A DNA stretch of 64,000 bases from assembly GCA_005222975.1 (NCBI GenBank), contig NJBI01000011.1, forward strand, positions 17,810-81,809, written 5' to 3'. How positions within the stretch are numbered: the stretch's first letter is position 1; every line of letters begins with the position of its first letter. Under the pieces are notes generated by a model that was not told the DNA's origin, did no database searches, and saw nothing but the letters and a program-made list of their open reading frames with translations. The translations under genes were made by a program, and so were the position numbers. Positions 9,702 to 30,044 of the stretch are shown here, piece after piece. The stretch is from Promethearchaeota archaeon Loki_b31 (lineage in GTDB: Archaea > Asgardarchaeota > Lokiarchaeia > Sigyniarchaeales > SOKP01).

Positions 9702-10652
9702 CTATAAATTTCCAAATTTTATTAATATCGCATCATAAGGACACTTCTCTTTACACTCCAAACAAAAGTTACACTCACCTTTACCCGTGAAAAATTCAAA
9801 CGGCTCATCTAATATTCTAATCTGTTTTGGACAGATGTCTTCACAGATTCCACATTCAGACCTACCTACACATTTAACAGGGTTTCTGGATAATTTTAAA
9901 AAAGCATAATCGGTTATGACTGAAGAAACTGCAGCAAAAGGGCAAATATACCTACAGTATAATCGTGGATACCACACCGAAAGGACAAGGATTAAAGTGT
10001 AGACACCTATTATAATATATCCTCCAGGTTCTAAAGCATCGAATTTTGCCGGTAAAAAGATATTCAGAATAATATCTGGAAGAAACACAAAAATAAATTC
10101 AGATAAAGAAAAAAATCCTATTGGTCGTTGAGCAAATACACCTATCTGGTTTTTAAAATCAAGATAAAATAAGACATTCGTATTTTTAGCAATTCCTAAC
10201 GGGAATATGATTAATGTGATAATAATTATAAAAACATACTTTATGTTGAGAAGATTCTTATGGGTTTCAAGTTTTACCCTCTTTTTTTTAGTAGGTATTG
10301 CAGCACACACATCTTGGATCGCCCCAATCGGACATATCCATCCACAAAAAAACCGATTTGAAAATAATAATATTAATATTAACACTGCAATAAGAAAAAA
10401 TGGAAATACACCTTCTGCCATGGAGAAGAAGATATATTCTAACATTCCTGCTCCATTAGAAAGAGGATTTCTTGGCGAGTTTAAAATGGGTAGTGCCTTT
10501 ATAATTCCTTCTAAACTTAATAGGTTAATAGGAAAAATGGCTTCTATAATTATGTAATTTATCAATAAAAACGCAAAAATCTGAATTATTCTTCGAGTGA
10601 TTGTGATTAAGTTTCCTCTAATCTTTAAACTTTTAAATCTCATAGATATCAC
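9702..10652 (-). CDS. NapH/MauN-type membrane 4Fe-4S protein
   Basis: RFFCGWICPIG and RLYCRYICP motifs, TM helices, C-terminal 2x4Fe-4S. Confidence 0.85.
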   Translation of the reverse strand: MISMRFKSLKIRGNLITITRRIIQIFAFLLINYIIIEAIFPINLLSLEGIIKALPILNSPRNPLSNGAGMLEYIFFSMAEGVFPFFLIAVLILILLFSNRFFCGWICPIGAIQDVCAAIPTKKKRVKLETHKNLLNIKYVFIIIITLIIFPLGIAKNTNVLFYLDFKNQIGVFAQRPIGFFSLSEFIFVFLPDIILNIFLPAKFDALEPGGYIIIGVYTLILVLSVWYPRLYCRYICPFAAVSSVITDYAFLKLSRNPVKCVGRSECGICEDICPKQIRILDEPFEFFTGKGECNFCLECKEKCPYDAILIKFGNL

Positions 10653-10745
10653 TTGCTAAATTTTAAATTAATAAATAATTGCTGGTTTTTCAATTTTTAG
10701 AATTGAAAAAAGAGAAATAAAAAAAAATTTGAAAAAGTAATTTTT

Positions 10746-11180
10746 TTAAGCTTTTTTAATTTTACTGAAGGACTTTTTATACTCTTCAGGATTTCCACCC
10801 GCTACAAGGTAATCTATGTAAACTTTTAAACTTTTTAAAAATAAATCTCCAGCCATTTCCATAATCATTCTTTGGTCTTCCAATTCAAATTCAGTCCAAA
10901 GCGTCACTTTAGTTACATCGCCTTTCGGTTCGAAAATATAACCAATTTTTTTCATAGGGCTTCCCTCTTGGATTGATGTTATCTTCTCACGAGGTATGTT
11001 CTCAATTTCTATGTTTGTTACATCCCCTACATTAGTTTTTAGGAAATATTTTTTGGAATCGAGTTGTTTGATTTCATTTACAACGATATTCCATCTTGGT
11101 AAACCCATGTAATCGTTTAATATCTCGTAAACTTTTTCTACGGAAGCTTTAATTTCTATTTTTTTTTCTGCTATTGGCAA
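10746..11180 (-). CDS. SRPBCC/START-fold protein
   Basis: IEIKASVEKVYEIL...PRWN pattern; TTG start with GGAG upstream. Confidence 0.75.
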   Translation of the reverse strand: MPIAEKKIEIKASVEKVYEILNDYMGLPRWNIVVNEIKQLDSKKYFLKTNVGDVTNIEIENIPREKITSIQEGSPMKKIGYIFEPKGDVTKVTLWTEFELEDQRMIMEMAGDLFLKSLKVYIDYLVAGGNPEEYKKSFSKIKKA

Positions 11181-11289
11181 AAAATCAACTCCTTTAAAAT
11201 TTATTATCTTTAGTCATTATTAAAAATTACAGTAAAACATTTAGCTGAAATTTAAATCTTTAATATAATAAAATAGAGAGATGAATGGA

Positions 11290-13200
11290 TTACTTGAGCG
11301 AAAGAGACTCTCTATTTCTCGGAGCTTTAGTGGCTTTTCTTAATTTTTTATGTATCATCGTCGATAAGCTTACACATTTGCTTTCTTCGCCGTGGTTGAT
11401 TATAACTAATTTTGGTCTGGGTTGAATTCTGCGTAGAAATTGCGATATCTGGCTTCTTGACGAGTGACCAGAGAATCCTTCTAAAGTAAAGACATTTAAG
11501 TTTAATCTTATAAGCTGTGTCCTTCCTTTCTCATTGGTGTATTGAATCTCGCGGAAACCACGCTGAACCCTGCTTCCCAAAGTTCCATTTACTTGGTAAG
11601 ATACAAATATAAGAGAATTATTCTTATCTTCAGCTAACCTTCTTAAATATTGAACTGAGGGGCCTCCGATTAACATACCGCTCGTAGCTAAGATAATACA
11701 AGGTCCACCCAAAATTACATCGTTCCTTTCTTCTTGACTAGAAATAGTCGTGAAAAAATCGCTTAAGAATGGGTTTTTGCCCTGATGTAATATTTTTTCT
11801 CTTAAGTCAGAGCTAAGAAAATCGGGGTTTGCGGTATGTATAGCTGTTGCTTCTGAGATTAATCCGTCCAAAAAGATTGGGACATGATCAATAATACCTT
11901 TTGAGATGAACTCTTCTAACACTATTATTAGCTCTTGAGCTCGCCCTACTGCTAATACAGGAATAAGAATTTTGCCACCTCTCTTGATCGTTGAATTTAA
12001 TATTTGCCTAAGGTCTCTTTCAGAATCTTGTCTACTTGGGATTCGATCTTGAGGGCCTCCATAAGTTGATTCAATAAGTAGGGCTTCAACCCTCGGAAAT
12101 TTTACAGCCGCTTTTTCTAGAAGTCTTGTTTTTTGATATTTAAAATCTCCTGTGTATATAAAGTTGAATCCACCCTTTCCGAAATGTAAATGAATTATTG
12201 AAGAGCCTAATATATGACCAGAATTATGAAGTGTTAACTTAATATCGGGAGCAATATCCGTAACTTTCCCCCATGAGAGGGGTATCGTATGGAGTACAGC
12301 GCTTTTTACATCCCTTTTAGAATAAGGACCAGGTATACCCTCTTTTTCGCAAATCTGAACGAAATCTAATTGCAACATGGTCGAAAGGTTTCGTGTAGGG
12401 AGCGTACAATATACGGGACCTTTATACCCATACTTAAATAAAAAAGGTACCATTCCACAATGATCTAAGTGAGCATGAGAAACTATTACGGCGTCTAAAT
12501 CCCTTATTGAAAACTCTGGAATATCAAAATTTGGAAATTGATCGTTTTTATTGCCGACATTTAACCCTACATCGAGAAGAATGTTACTATCTCTTGTTTG
12601 CATTAAAATACACGATCTACCGACTTCTCTAAAACCACCTAAGGAAGTTAGGCGAATATTTAAATCTTTAAAAATGGTAGGGCGGTGAATTCTCTTTCCA
12701 ATATTCAAGAGTATGTCTTTTTGGTTTTGTCTTTCTTTTTTCAACATTCCTCTAATTAATTCAATGGTTCTCGATTCCAACGGTGGCGTTCTTATTGTTT
12801 TAGGTTGCCAAAAAGTGTTCATCCGTATTTCCTTTAAATTCACACCTTTTTTTCCAATAACCAACCCTGGTTTTACCGATTCTATAATAACTTCTCCACG
12901 AGTGTGATCAAATTCAATATTGGTGATTTCAGCGCTTTCGACTATTAAATTTCTTATGTAATCTTCTGTTTCAGATGGATCCTTGCGCTTCTCCGCGTTC
13001 CAGCGAAAAACCACTCTTTTACGCATAGTTTTCGCTAATTCTTTTAAAATGTCTGAACTTTCAATAAGATCCAAATTTTCATTTTCAGAATAAACGGCTA
13101 TTTCAGGACCCTCAAATTCTATTTTTTTAACCTTGATACCGGCAGGGAGATTTGAAATGATTTGATCCTTAATTCTTTGTAGTTCTCCTTCGAAACTCAT
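11290..13200 (-). CDS. fttA: aCPSF1 beta-CASP ribonuclease / transcription termination factor
   Basis: Two KH domains (EFEGPE, PGLVIGKKG), HAHLDH, GHILGS, ESTYG, FSGHS. Confidence 0.97.
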   Translation of the reverse strand: MSFEGELQRIKDQIISNLPAGIKVKKIEFEGPEIAVYSENENLDLIESSDILKELAKTMRKRVVFRWNAEKRKDPSETEDYIRNLIVESAEITNIEFDHTRGEVIIESVKPGLVIGKKGVNLKEIRMNTFWQPKTIRTPPLESRTIELIRGMLKKERQNQKDILLNIGKRIHRPTIFKDLNIRLTSLGGFREVGRSCILMQTRDSNILLDVGLNVGNKNDQFPNFDIPEFSIRDLDAVIVSHAHLDHCGMVPFLFKYGYKGPVYCTLPTRNLSTMLQLDFVQICEKEGIPGPYSKRDVKSAVLHTIPLSWGKVTDIAPDIKLTLHNSGHILGSSIIHLHFGKGGFNFIYTGDFKYQKTRLLEKAAVKFPRVEALLIESTYGGPQDRIPSRQDSERDLRQILNSTIKRGGKILIPVLAVGRAQELIIVLEEFISKGIIDHVPIFLDGLISEATAIHTANPDFLSSDLREKILHQGKNPFLSDFFTTISSQEERNDVILGGPCIILATSGMLIGGPSVQYLRRLAEDKNNSLIFVSYQVNGTLGSRVQRGFREIQYTNEKGRTQLIRLNLNVFTLEGFSGHSSRSQISQFLRRIQPRPKLVIINHGEESKCVSLSTMIHKKLRKATKAPRNRESLSLK

Positions 13201-25382: not shown

Positions 25383-26513
25383 TTATTTATTTTCTTCTGT
25401 TTCGTTATCGCGTTCTTTATTGTAAGCTTCTACCTTTTCCATAACGGATTCTGCGGGTGTTGCTGCGGGAATTGGCATTTTTTCGTAAATTTCAATAAAC
25501 TTTACATTCTCTATATCTTCGCTCATATGAGTCTGAAGGTCCATGGCAAGACCAAATTTTAAGTAAGTGAGATTTTGGAACAGAAACATTTTAGGGATTG
25601 TAATTTCTAGAGTTTTATCCTCCGCATGATTTATAATAAATTCAGCAGCACTCTCTTTAGGAATCCCCTTTGTAATCATGAAATATTCAATTTTTTCGTT
25701 AAAACCTTCGATTTTATCGATAATCTCTAGGTTGTAGTCGATTGATTGACCTGCCAAAGGATGGTTGTAGTCGATAATAACTTTTCCTTGCATAATATTA
25801 GAAACTACACCTCTTTGACCTTTTTTATTGGTAAAATCTTGACCATATTCGGGGTTCTTGCCTTCATTTAATTTTCTAAATTTAGCGATGCCAATTCTTT
25901 CGATTTTTTGAGGGTCTCTTTTACCAAATGCTTTAGTAGGGGGTATTCTTACAGATTTTTTTTCAAAGTAATTCATTTCTTTAATTGTATCAGTTAATCC
26001 CTCGTTTACAAATCCTGGCTTTCCAGCAATAATGAATTCTGGGGTGTAATAACCTTGTTTACCCTTTTCTTCTTCGTAAATCCCAGCTTTTCTTGCGTCC
26101 TCCTCGGTAGAAACTCTAAAAACTTTACCTTTTTGGGTTCTTGCTGTCATTTTTAAGAGTACAAAATCACCTTCGTCAACTTTTTTTCCTTGTAATTTTG
26201 CCTTCTTTTCTTCTAATTTCTTAGCTTCTTCTTGAATTCTTTTTTCTTCCTCTGCTTCTGCTTCCACTTCTGCGGAGATTTTATCGTTTTCTACTGTACT
26301 ACCATCTGAGGTAGCCTTATTTGAGTACCCTAACAAATCTTTTGCGTTACTTACGAATTTTTCAGCAGTAGCCTTTCCAATACCTTTAAGTTGTGTTAAC
26401 TCATCCACATCCGCATTTGCTAATTTCTCAACTGTATCAATCCCAGCTTCTATTAGAACTTCCTGTTTTTTGCCAACACCTTTCACATCTTCTAAATTCA
26501 TTCCTAAAACCAT
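25383..26513 (-). CDS. Long-type FKBP/SlyD PPIase with N-terminal helix-hairpin-helix domain
   Basis: VKGVG..AGIDTVEKLA..LKGIGKATA HhH; IPPTKAFGKRD and DYNHPLAG FKBP motifs. Confidence 0.88.
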   Translation of the reverse strand: MVLGMNLEDVKGVGKKQEVLIEAGIDTVEKLANADVDELTQLKGIGKATAEKFVSNAKDLLGYSNKATSDGSTVENDKISAEVEAEAEEEKRIQEEAKKLEEKKAKLQGKKVDEGDFVLLKMTARTQKGKVFRVSTEEDARKAGIYEEEKGKQGYYTPEFIIAGKPGFVNEGLTDTIKEMNYFEKKSVRIPPTKAFGKRDPQKIERIGIAKFRKLNEGKNPEYGQDFTNKKGQRGVVSNIMQGKVIIDYNHPLAGQSIDYNLEIIDKIEGFNEKIEYFMITKGIPKESAAEFIINHAEDKTLEITIPKMFLFQNLTYLKFGLAMDLQTHMSEDIENVKFIEIYEKMPIPAATPAESVMEKVEAYNKERDNETEENK

Positions 26514-26583: not shown

Positions 26584-26706
26584 TTAAGATACTGGCTCAT
26601 ACAAAATTCCTAATTCGTCAGCATAATTCTTAACATCGTGCATTTCTTCTATTGAAGGTCTTCTGTTTATTTCTTTATATTTATAAACTAAATATTCGGG
26701 GTGATA
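26584..26706 (-). pseudogene. Orphan second copy of the last 40 codons of the radical-SAM gene at 28110-29222
   Basis: Translates to YHPEYLVYKYKEINRRPSIEEMHDVKNYADELGILYEPVS*, 23/40 identical without gaps to FHPEY...WRPVS*. Confidence 0.9.
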
Positions 26707-26867
26707 AGAGATCAGAAAAAATTAAGTTTTTCTTTTTATAGAACCATTAGTATTAATATTCCTTATTTAAACAATAATTTTTGTTTAAATACATGTGTTC
26801 TAATAATATAGTATAGTGTATATACATATTTTTAGCCAAGAGGGCAGAAAGTAGAGATTTTGATATC

Positions 26868-28139
26868 TTGAAGGAAACAGGAGTGTATTTGATTAATGGG
26901 ACAATTAAAGAAAAAATTGCTGATGCTGCAGCTCTTTTCAAAGCAATAAGGAAACAGATTTCATTGTATCCAAATCCTTGTTATTGTATCAGAAAAGCCA
27001 TTGAAAATGCTGAGTTCTTCAGTTTGTTGCTTGGTTTAAAACCTTATTATTTTACATATAAAAGTCAAAGAAGTCAAAGAGGTAAGCAATTAGGTTTAGA
27101 CCTTTTAATAAGAATTGAAACAATTCTGATGAAATCATTTGATTATTGGAGACAGAAAGAATCCGACTCAAAATTAATTGACAAGATTACTTTCATAAGG
27201 GATAATATTAGAAAGATCATTGAAAGTTATAAAGCTTCTAACAAACTTAAGTTATATGCTCATGGTTCAAATGGTGTTTTAGAACAACACCCTGATCTAA
27301 AACTAGATTATTTTAAAAATATTGACTCTCTAGAAAAAGCGTATTGGCTTGGTTGTTTGTTTGCTGAAGCTTATATTACTATTAAGAAACTTAAAAGTGG
27401 TAAAAAATATTATCAATTAGGAGTTGGATGTGTACAAGATGATTTCATTTTATTAGAAAGGTTTGCAGATGCTCTTGGCTTAGATATTGTAAATAATGAA
27501 CCCCGTAAAGAAAAATATATTACTTCTAAAGGAGAAGTGCATCTATTTAGACGAATTACATTAATTAATAATTATTTTTGTAAAAATCTCATATCTCATG
27601 GATTTATTGTGGGAAAAAAAAAATCAAAAAACATAAGATTACCAAAATTTAAAATTCGAGAACTATTACTAGTGTTTCTACTTGGTTATTATGATGGAGA
27701 TGGAACAATGGGGAGATCTAGAATAACTTCTAGTAGTGAGAAGTTTCTTGAAGATATTTTAAATTCGCCATTCTTAAATATACACATTTCTAATTCCAAT
27801 TCCATCCAATATGATCCAGTTAAAAAATCATACATAATCACAGGAGATAGAATAAGTATAGGAGCAGACTTAATGAGAGAAATAGTTAAAAATTATAAGA
27901 ATAGCCTACCAAGAAAGCGAGCTTATTGGGAGAATTGGGTTGATAACCGTACAAATAAACCTTCTCCAAAAATGGATTTATTAAGAGAAAAACTACCTGA
28001 AGAGGAACTAATAAACCTTATGAAAAAATTTACTCTAAAACAAATTGCATATATGTACGGAGTTGGGTATAGAACTTTAATGGATTATAAAGGCAAATTA
28101 AATATATATTTAAGAGACAGGTCTCCAGAAGATTCCTAA
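26868..28139 (+). mobile_element. Free-standing two-motif LAGLIDADG homing endonuclease with C-terminal HTH
   Basis: KAYWLGCLFAEAY and FLLGYYDGDG motifs, FTLKQIAYMYGVGYRTL HTH; flanked by duplicated host-gene 3' ends. Confidence 0.82.
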
Positions 28140-29222
28140 TTTATCCGCATAATTTCTAACTTCTTGAATTTCCTGTGAATTAGGTCTACGATTTATTTCA
28201 GGATAGTGAAAAGCTTTGTACTCTGGATGAAACTGCTGCATTAGGTTCATAACCGCTTTTGGAAGTTCTTTAGCTACATAATCTAATATTGGCTTAGAAC
28301 AGCATTCCACATGATTAGGCATGATTAAGTGTCGAATTATTATTTCCCCACTTCCTAAATCGTGAATTCTTTTAAGATTACGAGTTATTACATCGTAATA
28401 ACCTTTTATTCCAGAGTATTTTTCTCCACATTCGTTGTTGCCGTACTTAAAATCAGGTAACCAAAAATCTATAAAATCTATGATGAGAGACAACGATTCG
28501 TTAGTAAGATAAAAGTTTGAATTCCAGAGTTGCGTAATGTTTGATGTTTGATGTTGAAAACTACCTACAATAGTATGGAGGTTTGGTATAGGATCACCTC
28601 CTACATAATTGATATTTATAGCACCTTTCCCAACTAGTTTGTCTGCAAGAGCGGCTAATTGTAAAACATCAACTTTTTGAGCAATATCTTCAATATTTCT
28701 CCGACCTTTCCAAGCTTGAGAAATATCGTAATTTTGACAAAAGACGCAACCAAAATTACAACCTTGGAAAAAGATAGTACCGCTTGGTATCAGCGGAGAT
28801 TCTTCGCCCATATGTAAAAAAGCAGAGGAAACAAACGAATCTTTCGATATCAGACAAAATCCTTTTTCACCATCTATACGGTTAACCTTACATTGCCTTT
28901 CGCAAAAAATGCAACTCTCAAGATATTTATTTGCTAATTCTTCAGCTAGAGTAATATAACTTTTAGAGGCTATGCTACGATTTTTAAGATCTTCAGTTGG
29001 ATTTTTTAACAACTCATTAAATTCTACAGATTTTTTCCTTAACAAATCCTCTAAATGTTCTATAGTATCTTTTGTATCGTATTCACATTTTATACTTTTT
29101 GCGATAATATACCTTGCAACTTCCTTATTGTCAATGATCCCTCGATATCTAGGAAATCTTTTGAGCAGTTCTTCGTTTTTCCACACCGAAATTGAGTCTG
29201 GTCGAAGAATTCTAAAAACCAT
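28110..29222 (-). CDS. Radical SAM protein, PflX family
   Basis: CIFCERQCKVNR..GFC, HMGEE, SGTIFF, CNFGCVFCQN, PDFKYG, IIRHLIMP. Confidence 0.9.
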   Translation of the reverse strand: MVFRILRPDSISVWKNEELLKRFPRYRGIIDNKEVARYIIAKSIKCEYDTKDTIEHLEDLLRKKSVEFNELLKNPTEDLKNRSIASKSYITLAEELANKYLESCIFCERQCKVNRIDGEKGFCLISKDSFVSSAFLHMGEESPLIPSGTIFFQGCNFGCVFCQNYDISQAWKGRRNIEDIAQKVDVLQLAALADKLVGKGAININYVGGDPIPNLHTIVGSFQHQTSNITQLWNSNFYLTNESLSLIIDFIDFWLPDFKYGNNECGEKYSGIKGYYDVITRNLKRIHDLGSGEIIIRHLIMPNHVECCSKPILDYVAKELPKAVMNLMQQFHPEYKAFHYPEINRRPNSQEIQEVRNYADKLGIFWRPVS

Positions 29223-29315: not shown

Positions 29316-30044
29316 TTAGGTATCAAATGCTAACCATTTGATGATGTTTGAAAGAAATTTAATATTATCACCAGCATCTAATCCAAATTCATCTTCAATA
29401 AGCCAATCTGATGAACCTATAGTTACACATCTCCCGTTAAAAAACTCGGATACAACACAAATAGGCACCAGCCCAATTATTTCTATATCGTCGTCAATTG
29501 TATATTTAAATTCTGCTTTTTCGGAAGTAACGATTAAATCCTCAACATCCTCTTCCGTTAGTGTAAAGAAAGTACAGTTTGGCAGGACTACTTCAGTAAT
29601 TCCTTCAGTTATCGGATGGTTAAATAAGAGGTTTATTAGTACATTTTGTTTGTTGACTAAAAAATGTGAGTGTGATTCTTGAATTACGCCGTTCCAAAAT
29701 CGTCGCACTCCCGTCATTTTATACAACACCCGAATAGAACCTAGCTTCATAGCAACATCATTATCGCCCCCACCTCCACTAGTTAAAAAAAGGCTCCCGC
29801 CACCCCCAACATACCGCTTAATTGCTAGTAGTTCGTCCTTAGTAAATTTATCTGCCTTTCCGTCTTTAGTATGCTGAATATGTCCCATAAATAGAATGTC
29901 ATAATCTTCAAGTGTATCAAAATCTATAGGTCCTTCATTCTTGTCAATATAATCGACTTCTAATTCGACTTCGCTTAAAGAAAAATCGGGAAATTCCTCT
30001 ATCTTTTCTTTGTGAGATAAATCGACTATTATACTATATGGCAT
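29316..30044 (-). CDS. Class I glutamine-amidotransferase-like (DUF4350/GIFT-type) domain protein
   Basis: VDLSHKE, FTKDELLAIKRYVGGGGSL, HPITEGI, GRCVTIGS, DNIKFLSNIIKWL. Confidence 0.65.
   Translation of the reverse strand: MPYSIIVDLSHKEKIEEFPDFSLSEVELEVDYIDKNEGPIDFDTLEDYDILFMGHIQHTKDGKADKFTKDELLAIKRYVGGGGSLFLTSGGGGDNDVAMKLGSIRVLYKMTGVRRFWNGVIQESHSHFLVNKQNVLINLLFNHPITEGITEVVLPNCTFFTLTEEDVEDLIVTSEKAEFKYTIDDDIEIIGLVPICVVSEFFNGRCVTIGSSDWLIEDEFGLDAGDNIKFLSNIIKWLAFDT

Follow-up and report, generated by a model that had tools for sequence, protein, structure and literature searches.

A probable splicing-free homing cassette that replaces the end of a host gene on an Asgard archaeal chromosome

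A pflX-like gene with two ends

Promethearchaeota archaeon Loki_b31 (Lokiarchaeia, Sigyniarchaeales) carries a pflX-like radical-SAM gene whose 3' end occurs twice, with an open reading frame (ORF) for a LAGLIDADG homing endonuclease lying between the two copies. The locus is part of a 64,000-nucleotide stretch of contig NJBI01000011.1 (assembly GCA_005222975.1, positions 17,810 to 81,809 of the forward strand; contig label G000:C18), which is the whole stretch of DNA analysed and is called the window throughout. Its source is a 3.5-Mb metagenome-assembled genome with about 6% contamination. A first-pass annotation of the window, made from its letters, had reported the pflX-like gene, the endonuclease, a second gene end, an overlap of 30 bp and a spacing of 70 bp, and all of these were found where it had placed them. 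The features of the locus, in window coordinates, are as follows.

25383-26513, minus strand: HhH-FKBP26-like gene (fkbp; Pfam HHH_5, FKBP26_C and FKBP_C), the native downstream neighbour of pflX, which it abuts in endonuclease-free relatives
26584-26706, minus strand: displaced native pflX 3' end (the remnant), codons 331-370 plus stop, without a start codon
26706/26707, no strand: insertion junction at native codon 330/331, the putative homing site, identical in the window, in loci L060 and L066 and in genome G005; in the empty allele the joint is 26706->28257
26707-26867, plus strand: cassette arm from the junction to the endonuclease ORF, a relic of the upstream region and of the start of a longer endonuclease form
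26868-28139, plus strand: free-standing two-motif LAGLIDADG homing endonuclease ORF, 423 aa from a TTG start, with an N-terminal helical region and a C-terminal helix-turn-helix (HTH)-like tail
28110-28268, minus strand: foreign replacement 3' end of pflX, codons ~319-370 plus stop, recognized by a drop in identity to relatives
28110-29222, minus strand: pflX-like radical-SAM gene, a hybrid of native body and foreign 3' end, 370 aa ORF (Pfam Radical_SAM)

The hybrid pflX ORF, which switches in frame from native to foreign sequence at about codon 319, is equal in length to its orthologues (370 aa), and its product has weak NCBIfam matches to glycyl-radical activases. Codons 331-370 of the end in use are a duplicate of the displaced native end. 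The latter consists of 40 open codons and a stop, with another stop five codons upstream, and is identical to the in-use end at 23 of 40 amino acids without gaps (about 65% identity in DNA); the BLASTP E-value of the pair, 2e-16, rules out a chance match. The cassette between the two ends, 26707-28256, is a 1.55-kb insert placed after pflX codon 330, and the endonuclease is its sole sizeable ORF. This ORF is convergent with pflX and overlaps the 3' end of that gene by 30 bp (28110-28139), and 70 bp separate the remnant from the FKBP26-like gene. The locus does not fit an intein or intron removed by splicing, as the endonuclease is antisense to pflX and the host ORF stops at its own stop within the cassette.

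For the endonuclease, an AlphaFold2 model (predicted local distance difference test score 74) was compared with the PDB using Foldseek, and the 47 best matches were all LAGLIDADG enzymes or maturases at a probability of 1.0, headed by the bI3 maturase, I-DmoI (template modelling score 0.50-0.57), I-AniI, I-SceI and I-Tsp061I. As modelled, the protein has the double alpha-beta-beta-alpha-beta-beta-alpha LAGLIDADG fold. Its score against Pfam LAGLIDADG_3, 18.7 bits, is under the cut-off of 22.5, and no match for it was found in NCBIfam; several of its homologues carry PF14528. The two motifs are LFAEAY (E167) and LLGYYDGDG (D278), and neither acidic residue varies in an alignment with 13 homologues. 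The first motif had been described as atypical, but the norm of this family is LFAE[GA]Y with an invariant Glu, so that the description does not hold. Compared with distant homologues, the endonuclease has a ratio of non-synonymous to synonymous divergence (dN/dS) of 0.20-0.28, and the protein is therefore under purifying selection over long distances.

The origin of the two ends can be read from G021, G017 and G009, the three species genomes closest to the window that have retained the locus but not the endonuclease. Their pflX proteins are 88-92% identical to that of the window, and the gene directly abuts fkbp across the same spacer of about 70 bp. The native ends in these genomes are 87-95% identical in amino acids to the remnant and 61-63% to the in-use end of the window, and the remnant DNA aligns with theirs past the stop, via the spacer, into fkbp. 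Such relatives, with pflX adjoining fkbp and ending in sequence of the 26584-26706 type, are what the first-pass annotation had predicted, and their native-type ends support its proposal that an endonuclease element replaced a 3' end without an intron. A tandem pflX paralogue was not found in any of the three, and there is no second pflX copy in the genome of the window, where radical-SAM relatives are only distant (25-27% identity).

Compared with close relatives, the window pflX DNA is 98-100% identical through codon 315 and 58-73% identical thereafter, and a codon-level comparison places the beginning of the foreign tract at about codon 319, upstream of the duplicated part. The extent first proposed for the element was thus right in joining a foreign 3' end to the endonuclease, and its border has to be moved further upstream, to about codon 319. 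In sequence, the in-use end is similar to those of less closely related congeners: codons 319-343 share 92% identity with the allele of genome G008 (versus 76% for the gene body), and codons 346-370 share 87-96% with the cassette of L060. The window pflX tail is a mosaic of three sources.

The G008 allele (L019, G008:C8), which is free of the endonuclease, itself has a chimeric end at pflX codons 319-370, the first half being of the in-use type and the last ~12 codons and the downstream DNA of the native type. This chimeric end may have been left behind when a cassette was lost through recombination between the duplicated ends.

Occupied and empty alleles across lineages and sediments

The contexts of seven close homologues, 56-96% identical to the endonuclease, were examined; the closer copies came from metagenome assemblies, and the sources bear the names Promethearchaeota or Lokiarchaeota. 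Every one of the seven adjoins a pflX 3' end or a remnant of such an end, in the following layouts.

L060/L061: layout as in the window
L066: methyltransferase gene between remnant and endonuclease
L062: NosD-like gene as far neighbour; without remnant
L067: CDC48_N ORF between FKBP and endonuclease; without remnant
L064/L065 and L069/L070: endonuclease in the other orientation and C-terminally shortened, followed directly by the remnant
L071: insert of ~4.5 kb, with four further ORFs before the remnant

The remnants found with a profile of the pflX C-terminus start at profile positions 17-22, which correspond to codon 331±2, and remnants starting there occur at three distinct junction sequences. 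The endonuclease lineage is present in only 3 of the 154 species genomes of the order, two of these being the genomes of L064 and L067. Among the 42 species genomes of the genus there was no near-identical donor of the endonuclease (none above 37% identity), and the best candidates in a search of all 154 genomes of the order were two at 70%, from a sister genus, so that no donor was identifiable.

In other genomes extra genes lie between the in-use and the displaced ends of pflX, namely a methyltransferase gene (L066:2502-3227), a DUF4145 ORF (L064:3622-4302), a CDC48_N ORF (L067:3273-3791), four ORFs (L071:2984-7383) and a Schlafen/AlbA_2 ORF (L014:2776-3555). Pfam searches with six of the extra ORFs matched DUF4145 (weakly), CDC48_N and SLFN_AlbA_2, and left three L071 ORFs without a family; family names for the methyltransferase are taken from precomputed annotation. 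A defence role of the cargo is unsupported, the L066 methyltransferase (mad2-like) being the sole PADLOC match among seven extra ORFs. The pflX cassette site behaves as a small integrase-free island.

Both forms of the locus occur in nature. The stretch is present in runs of nine studies of cold-seep and marine sediment metagenomes, and contigs from four runs, belonging to four independent studies, were aligned to the window; the only aligned run labelled as RNA, X17, is probably DNA. The occupied form was present alongside the empty one in the contigs of these studies, one example being a single 1606-nt contig of run X4, which covers 26635-28240 with 3 mismatches. The empty-allele joint, 26706->28257, was present in all four runs, with 1550 nt skipped and 24 other nt in place. 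The reverse complement of these 24 nt encodes CVVNLMGQ, that is, native pflX codons 323-330, and as these codons are missing from the occupied allele, the empty alleles are not deletions of the occupied form. The search for empty sites that the first-pass annotation had advised was thus successful in four studies. Summed contig depth was higher at the empty joint than in the endonuclease region (282 vs 153, 14.9 vs 9.1 and 34.9 vs 8.8), and the empty-allele contigs differ from the window by ~3.5% in the pflX body, and therefore derive from sister lineages present in those samples. In run X2, one contig also has a joint 26231->26812, with a 24-nt side.

The borders of the cassette point to more than one event. 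On the side of the remnant, the junction shared by the window, L060, L066 and G005 (contig L072) is common to four lineages, and the founding insertion is therefore older than this genome. On the other side the foreign tract starts at differing codons, ~319 in the window, ~327 in L060, ~326 in L066 and 331 in G005, and these edges match the pattern expected of co-conversion tracts of varied length from one break. Rates of synonymous divergence (dS) point the same way. Between the window and L060, dS is 0.030 for the endonuclease, versus 0.105 for FKBP, 0.104 for HAD and 0.088 for pflX codons 68-240, and between the window and L066 it is 0.150 for the endonuclease and ~0.09-0.11 for host genes. 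The order of relatedness thus differs between the endonuclease and the host genes, and the histories of cassette and host therefore disagree; between the window and L060 lineages the endonuclease is younger than the host genes that flank it.

The remnant had been noted to be undecayed and hence either recently displaced or still used. Its state is best explained by repeated homing and a short elapsed time, and not by use, as it is without a start codon and the remnant of L060 has a 43-bp deletion. Comparison of two remnants with native ends gave 5 non-synonymous and 5 synonymous changes, a number too small for telling neutral evolution from constraint. In G005 (L014:2428-2652 and L072:1-845) the cassette is decayed: the remnant junction and the N-terminal extension of the endonuclease are kept, and unrelated DNA with the Schlafen/AlbA_2 ORF has taken the place of the endonuclease core and of the final 13 codons of pflX. 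The G005 pflX thus has a novel 26-aa tail, and the assembly breaks inside the insert.

A homing mechanism and its alternatives

We consider it likely that the insert at 26707-28256 is a homing cassette that works without splicing, by replacing the end of its host gene. The gene end carried by the cassette is read in frame with the native body, which keeps pflX whole (370 aa) with no intron or intein; the native end is pushed downstream and would be left untranslated. The endonuclease would cut pflX alleles that lack the cassette, at codon 330/331 or close to it, and the break would be repaired by copying the occupied allele, using homology to the pflX body on one side and to the displaced end and fkbp on the other. 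Because the displaced end stays beside the cassette, homology to an empty allele would be available on both sides of codon 330/331. The cassette would enter with a variable stretch of upstream sequence by co-conversion, and each homing event would leave a fresh native remnant, so that remnants would look undecayed. The occupied allele would be protected, its target being split and its in-use copy diverged in sequence. The cleavage activity, the exact target and the immunity of the in-use end that this scheme assumes are putative; site-specific cleavage of the empty allele has indirect support from the junctions at one codon and from the co-conversion edges.

A number of observations weigh against active homing. 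L060, L066 and G005 keep a 145-aa N-terminal extension of the endonuclease, which the window is without owing to a deletion of ~430 bp. The deletion scar lies near 26840-26850, the frame with the GTG start ends in the window after 12 codons, and the core ORF now begins at TTG 26868; similarly short N-termini are found in other family members. At position 27356 the window has T and contigs of all four runs have G, giving a substitution private to the window, W163C, in which Cys163 replaces a nearly invariant Trp in LAGLIDADG motif 1 that is read as Trp in four other populations. The window's own copy of the endonuclease may accordingly be an impaired one. Among the closest endonuclease copies dN/dS is ~0.5. 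General recombination is frequent in the population, the IFT52-like gene upstream of pflX having a dS of 0.03 to G017 versus ~0.17 to others, and the cassette could be spread by ordinary homologous recombination even if the endonuclease were inactive. The in-use ends of the window, L060 and L066 differ mutually beyond what simple co-transfer with the endonuclease would give. Across genera, the divergence of the endonuclease (~70% in amino acids) is about that of pflX (~72-75%), and long-term vertical descent across genera is conceivable. Finally, the proposed target site is deduced from junction positions alone.

These points bear on an alternative in which the cassette is a passive relic, the product of one ancient illegitimate insertion of a now inactive endonuclease together with a foreign end, followed by vertical descent, loss and ordinary recombination. 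It is favoured by the ~430-bp 5' deletion and the private W163C of the window copy, by the dN/dS of ~0.5 among close copies, by the general mosaicism of neighbouring genes, by the single junction common to four lineages, and by the overwriting of the G005 copy with other DNA. It fits poorly, however, with the purifying selection on the endonuclease over long distances (0.20-0.28), with three distinct junctions at the same codon, with edges that step outward from one point as co-conversion would produce them, with an endonuclease dS three times below that of the host between the window and L060, and with empty alleles that no deletion in the occupied form could have produced. We regard this explanation as unlikely, though conceivable for the window's own copy.

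The other alternatives fare less well. Two similar gene ends in direct orientation could also result from a tandem duplication of pflX, with decay of the second copy and the chance landing of an endonuclease between the two, but the endonuclease-free relatives have a single pflX that abuts fkbp and has a remnant-type end, the in-use end is far closer to alleles of other lineages (up to 92-96%) than to the remnant (~65% in DNA), and there is no trace of a second gene body, all of which makes such a history highly improbable. We give similarly little credence to an integrase-type element (a virus, plasmid or island) that entered the pflX 3' end by recombination, bringing an attP copy of it. Such elements typically replace a 3' end and leave a direct repeat, and the larger inserts in other genomes do hold extra genes; yet the 1.55-kb insert holds the endonuclease ORF only, the ORFs checked in the larger versions include no recombinase, and the repeats, at ~65% DNA identity, are unlike the near-identical att sites that would be expected. 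An assembly artefact joining the pflX ends of two strains, a danger already named in the first-pass annotation and one that the ~6% contamination of a metagenome-assembled genome and the co-occurrence of several related strains might suggest, is ruled out for practical purposes by the recurrence of the window-type layout in independent assemblies (L060 from ENA, L061 from Logan and L066 from JGI) and by single contigs of other studies that bridge remnant, endonuclease and in-use end, including the spanning 1606-nt contig.

Known homing systems and a second cassette at an aldolase gene

The closest parallels to a homing cassette of this kind are the mobile endonuclease ORFs (mORFs) of fungal mitochondria, which replace the C-terminus of their host gene, as in atp6 of Allomyces macrogynus and in atp6, atp9, cox2 and nad3 of Glomus sp. 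(PMC3630166); for the Allomyces endonuclease, mobility is stated there to have been shown biochemically. In both systems a host gene has an endonuclease ORF (LAGLIDADG in most of the Glomus cases) within its 3' portion and, without any splicing, continues in frame from its native body into a diverged C-terminus of foreign origin, and the displaced native C-terminus is nearly identical to that of a close relative free of the element. The present case differs in that the host is an archaeal chromosome rather than an organelle, and the host gene encodes a radical-SAM enzyme; the endonuclease is convergent (antisense) with an overlap of 30 bp, whereas mORFs are co-oriented or in phase; and related cassettes carry extra cargo genes. 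The activity of the archaeal enzyme is putative, unlike that of the Allomyces one.

Free-standing endonucleases of T4-like phages (Seg and Mob, of the GIY-YIG or HNH types) are known for 'intronless homing', and mobE is reportedly an example. Like the window endonuclease, they are situated outside any intron or intein and beside a conserved gene, spread by break repair with co-conversion of variable length, and spare an occupied allele that is protected by sequence differences, a protection that is here putative. The phage enzymes, however, sit between genes and involve no duplication of a gene end, whereas here a LAGLIDADG enzyme on a cellular chromosome is associated with a gene end that is both duplicated and replaced. 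With archaeal enzymes of the I-DmoI, I-Tsp061I and PI-PfuI type the window endonuclease shares a monomeric two-motif LAGLIDADG fold, but those enzymes are encoded within rRNA introns or inteins that splicing removes; the window protein has no intron or intein around it, lies on the strand opposite to its host gene and has extra N-terminal and C-terminal (HTH-like) regions. A search of open-access papers and preprints found no description of a free-standing LAGLIDADG cassette with a duplicated gene end in Asgard or other archaea.

The pflX cassette has a counterpart elsewhere in the genus. The suggestion that duplicated gene ends might flank other LAGLIDADG genes proved correct for further free-standing genes, as exemplified by a second cassette in the same genome (L007:1200-3393, equivalent to G000:C99, about 10290-12485). 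The order there is a DeoC-family aldolase gene, a LAGLIDADG ORF of 398 aa on the same strand, and a copy of the last ~17 codons of the aldolase. This aldolase remnant (…SNGPVGL) is equal to the in-use end of the endonuclease-free genomes G017, G009, G005 and G021, and the aldolase end in use (…QKGPVGL) is of foreign type. The same arrangement is present in G019 (L058), and the aldolase end of G022, like the pflX end of G008, looks like a footprint of cassette loss.

In 5 of 38 genomes of the genus the aldolase coding sequence is also split, between GVD and MGRNIFQ, by 30 or 32 nt that contain in-frame stops. The species concerned are G000, G050, G016, G019 and G022, with the insert at loci L073:1469-1537 (minus strand; the genome of the window), L074, L099, L100 and L101. 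The insert folds as a bulge-helix-bulge (BHB), with two 3-nt bulges, a 4-bp helix between them and a hairpin of 9-10 bp, and cuts after the second base of each bulge would restore GVD-MG in frame in all five. When the inserts are aligned, 88.5% of the cells pair, versus 30-49% in slid controls, and four pairs have double changes, one pair of the central helix occurring as AU, CG and UA. The insert is likely to be a BHB intron in a protein-coding gene, to judge from this folding and covariation, and it may shield the target of the adjacent endonuclease, an arrangement known as 'collaborative homing'.

We tentatively raise the possibility, about which we are more doubtful than confident, that gene-end replacement is a general and undescribed lifestyle of archaeal homing endonucleases without introns or inteins, including cargo-capturing integrase-free islets and collaborative homing at the aldolase. 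The idea is based on cassettes recurring at the same codons in conserved genes (pflX and the aldolase), on the capture of cargo between the ends (the methyltransferase, DUF4145, CDC48_N and Schlafen/AlbA_2 genes, with inserts of up to ~4.5 kb), and on the possible cooperation of the aldolase cassette with a 30-32-nt BHB intron that would mask its target. On the homing reading, the strategy of 'bring your own gene end', which needs no splicing and is documented so far in fungal mitochondria, would extend to Asgard chromosomes, and the cassette would drive the exchange of gene segments between species, as in the pflX tail of the window. As both states of the allele, occupied and empty, are found together in sediments of cold seeps and the sea, the homing cycle should be traceable in natural populations through its stages of invasion, decay and loss, and through footprints such as chimeric gene ends. 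The endonuclease and its putative ~20-bp target are open to direct testing. For annotators, short 'orphan' gene ends beside LAGLIDADG ORFs would be such footprints rather than pseudogene debris.

Further free-standing LAGLIDADG ORFs with similar short peptides on both flanks were seen at L050 (G049:C384) and L059 (G017:C65). The flank peptides are FDG.R.RKV.VQ.QGE (16 aa, 75%) and PETHWDRE (8 aa), and it is possible that these flanks are further duplicated gene ends.

The gene upstream of pflX, at 29316-30044 on the minus strand, has a Pfam match to the IFT52 GIFT domain (E = 2.7e-7), whose name otherwise refers to an intraflagellar-transport protein of eukaryotes. The order of a proteasome subunit gene, this IFT52-like gene, pflX and fkbp is kept across the genus.

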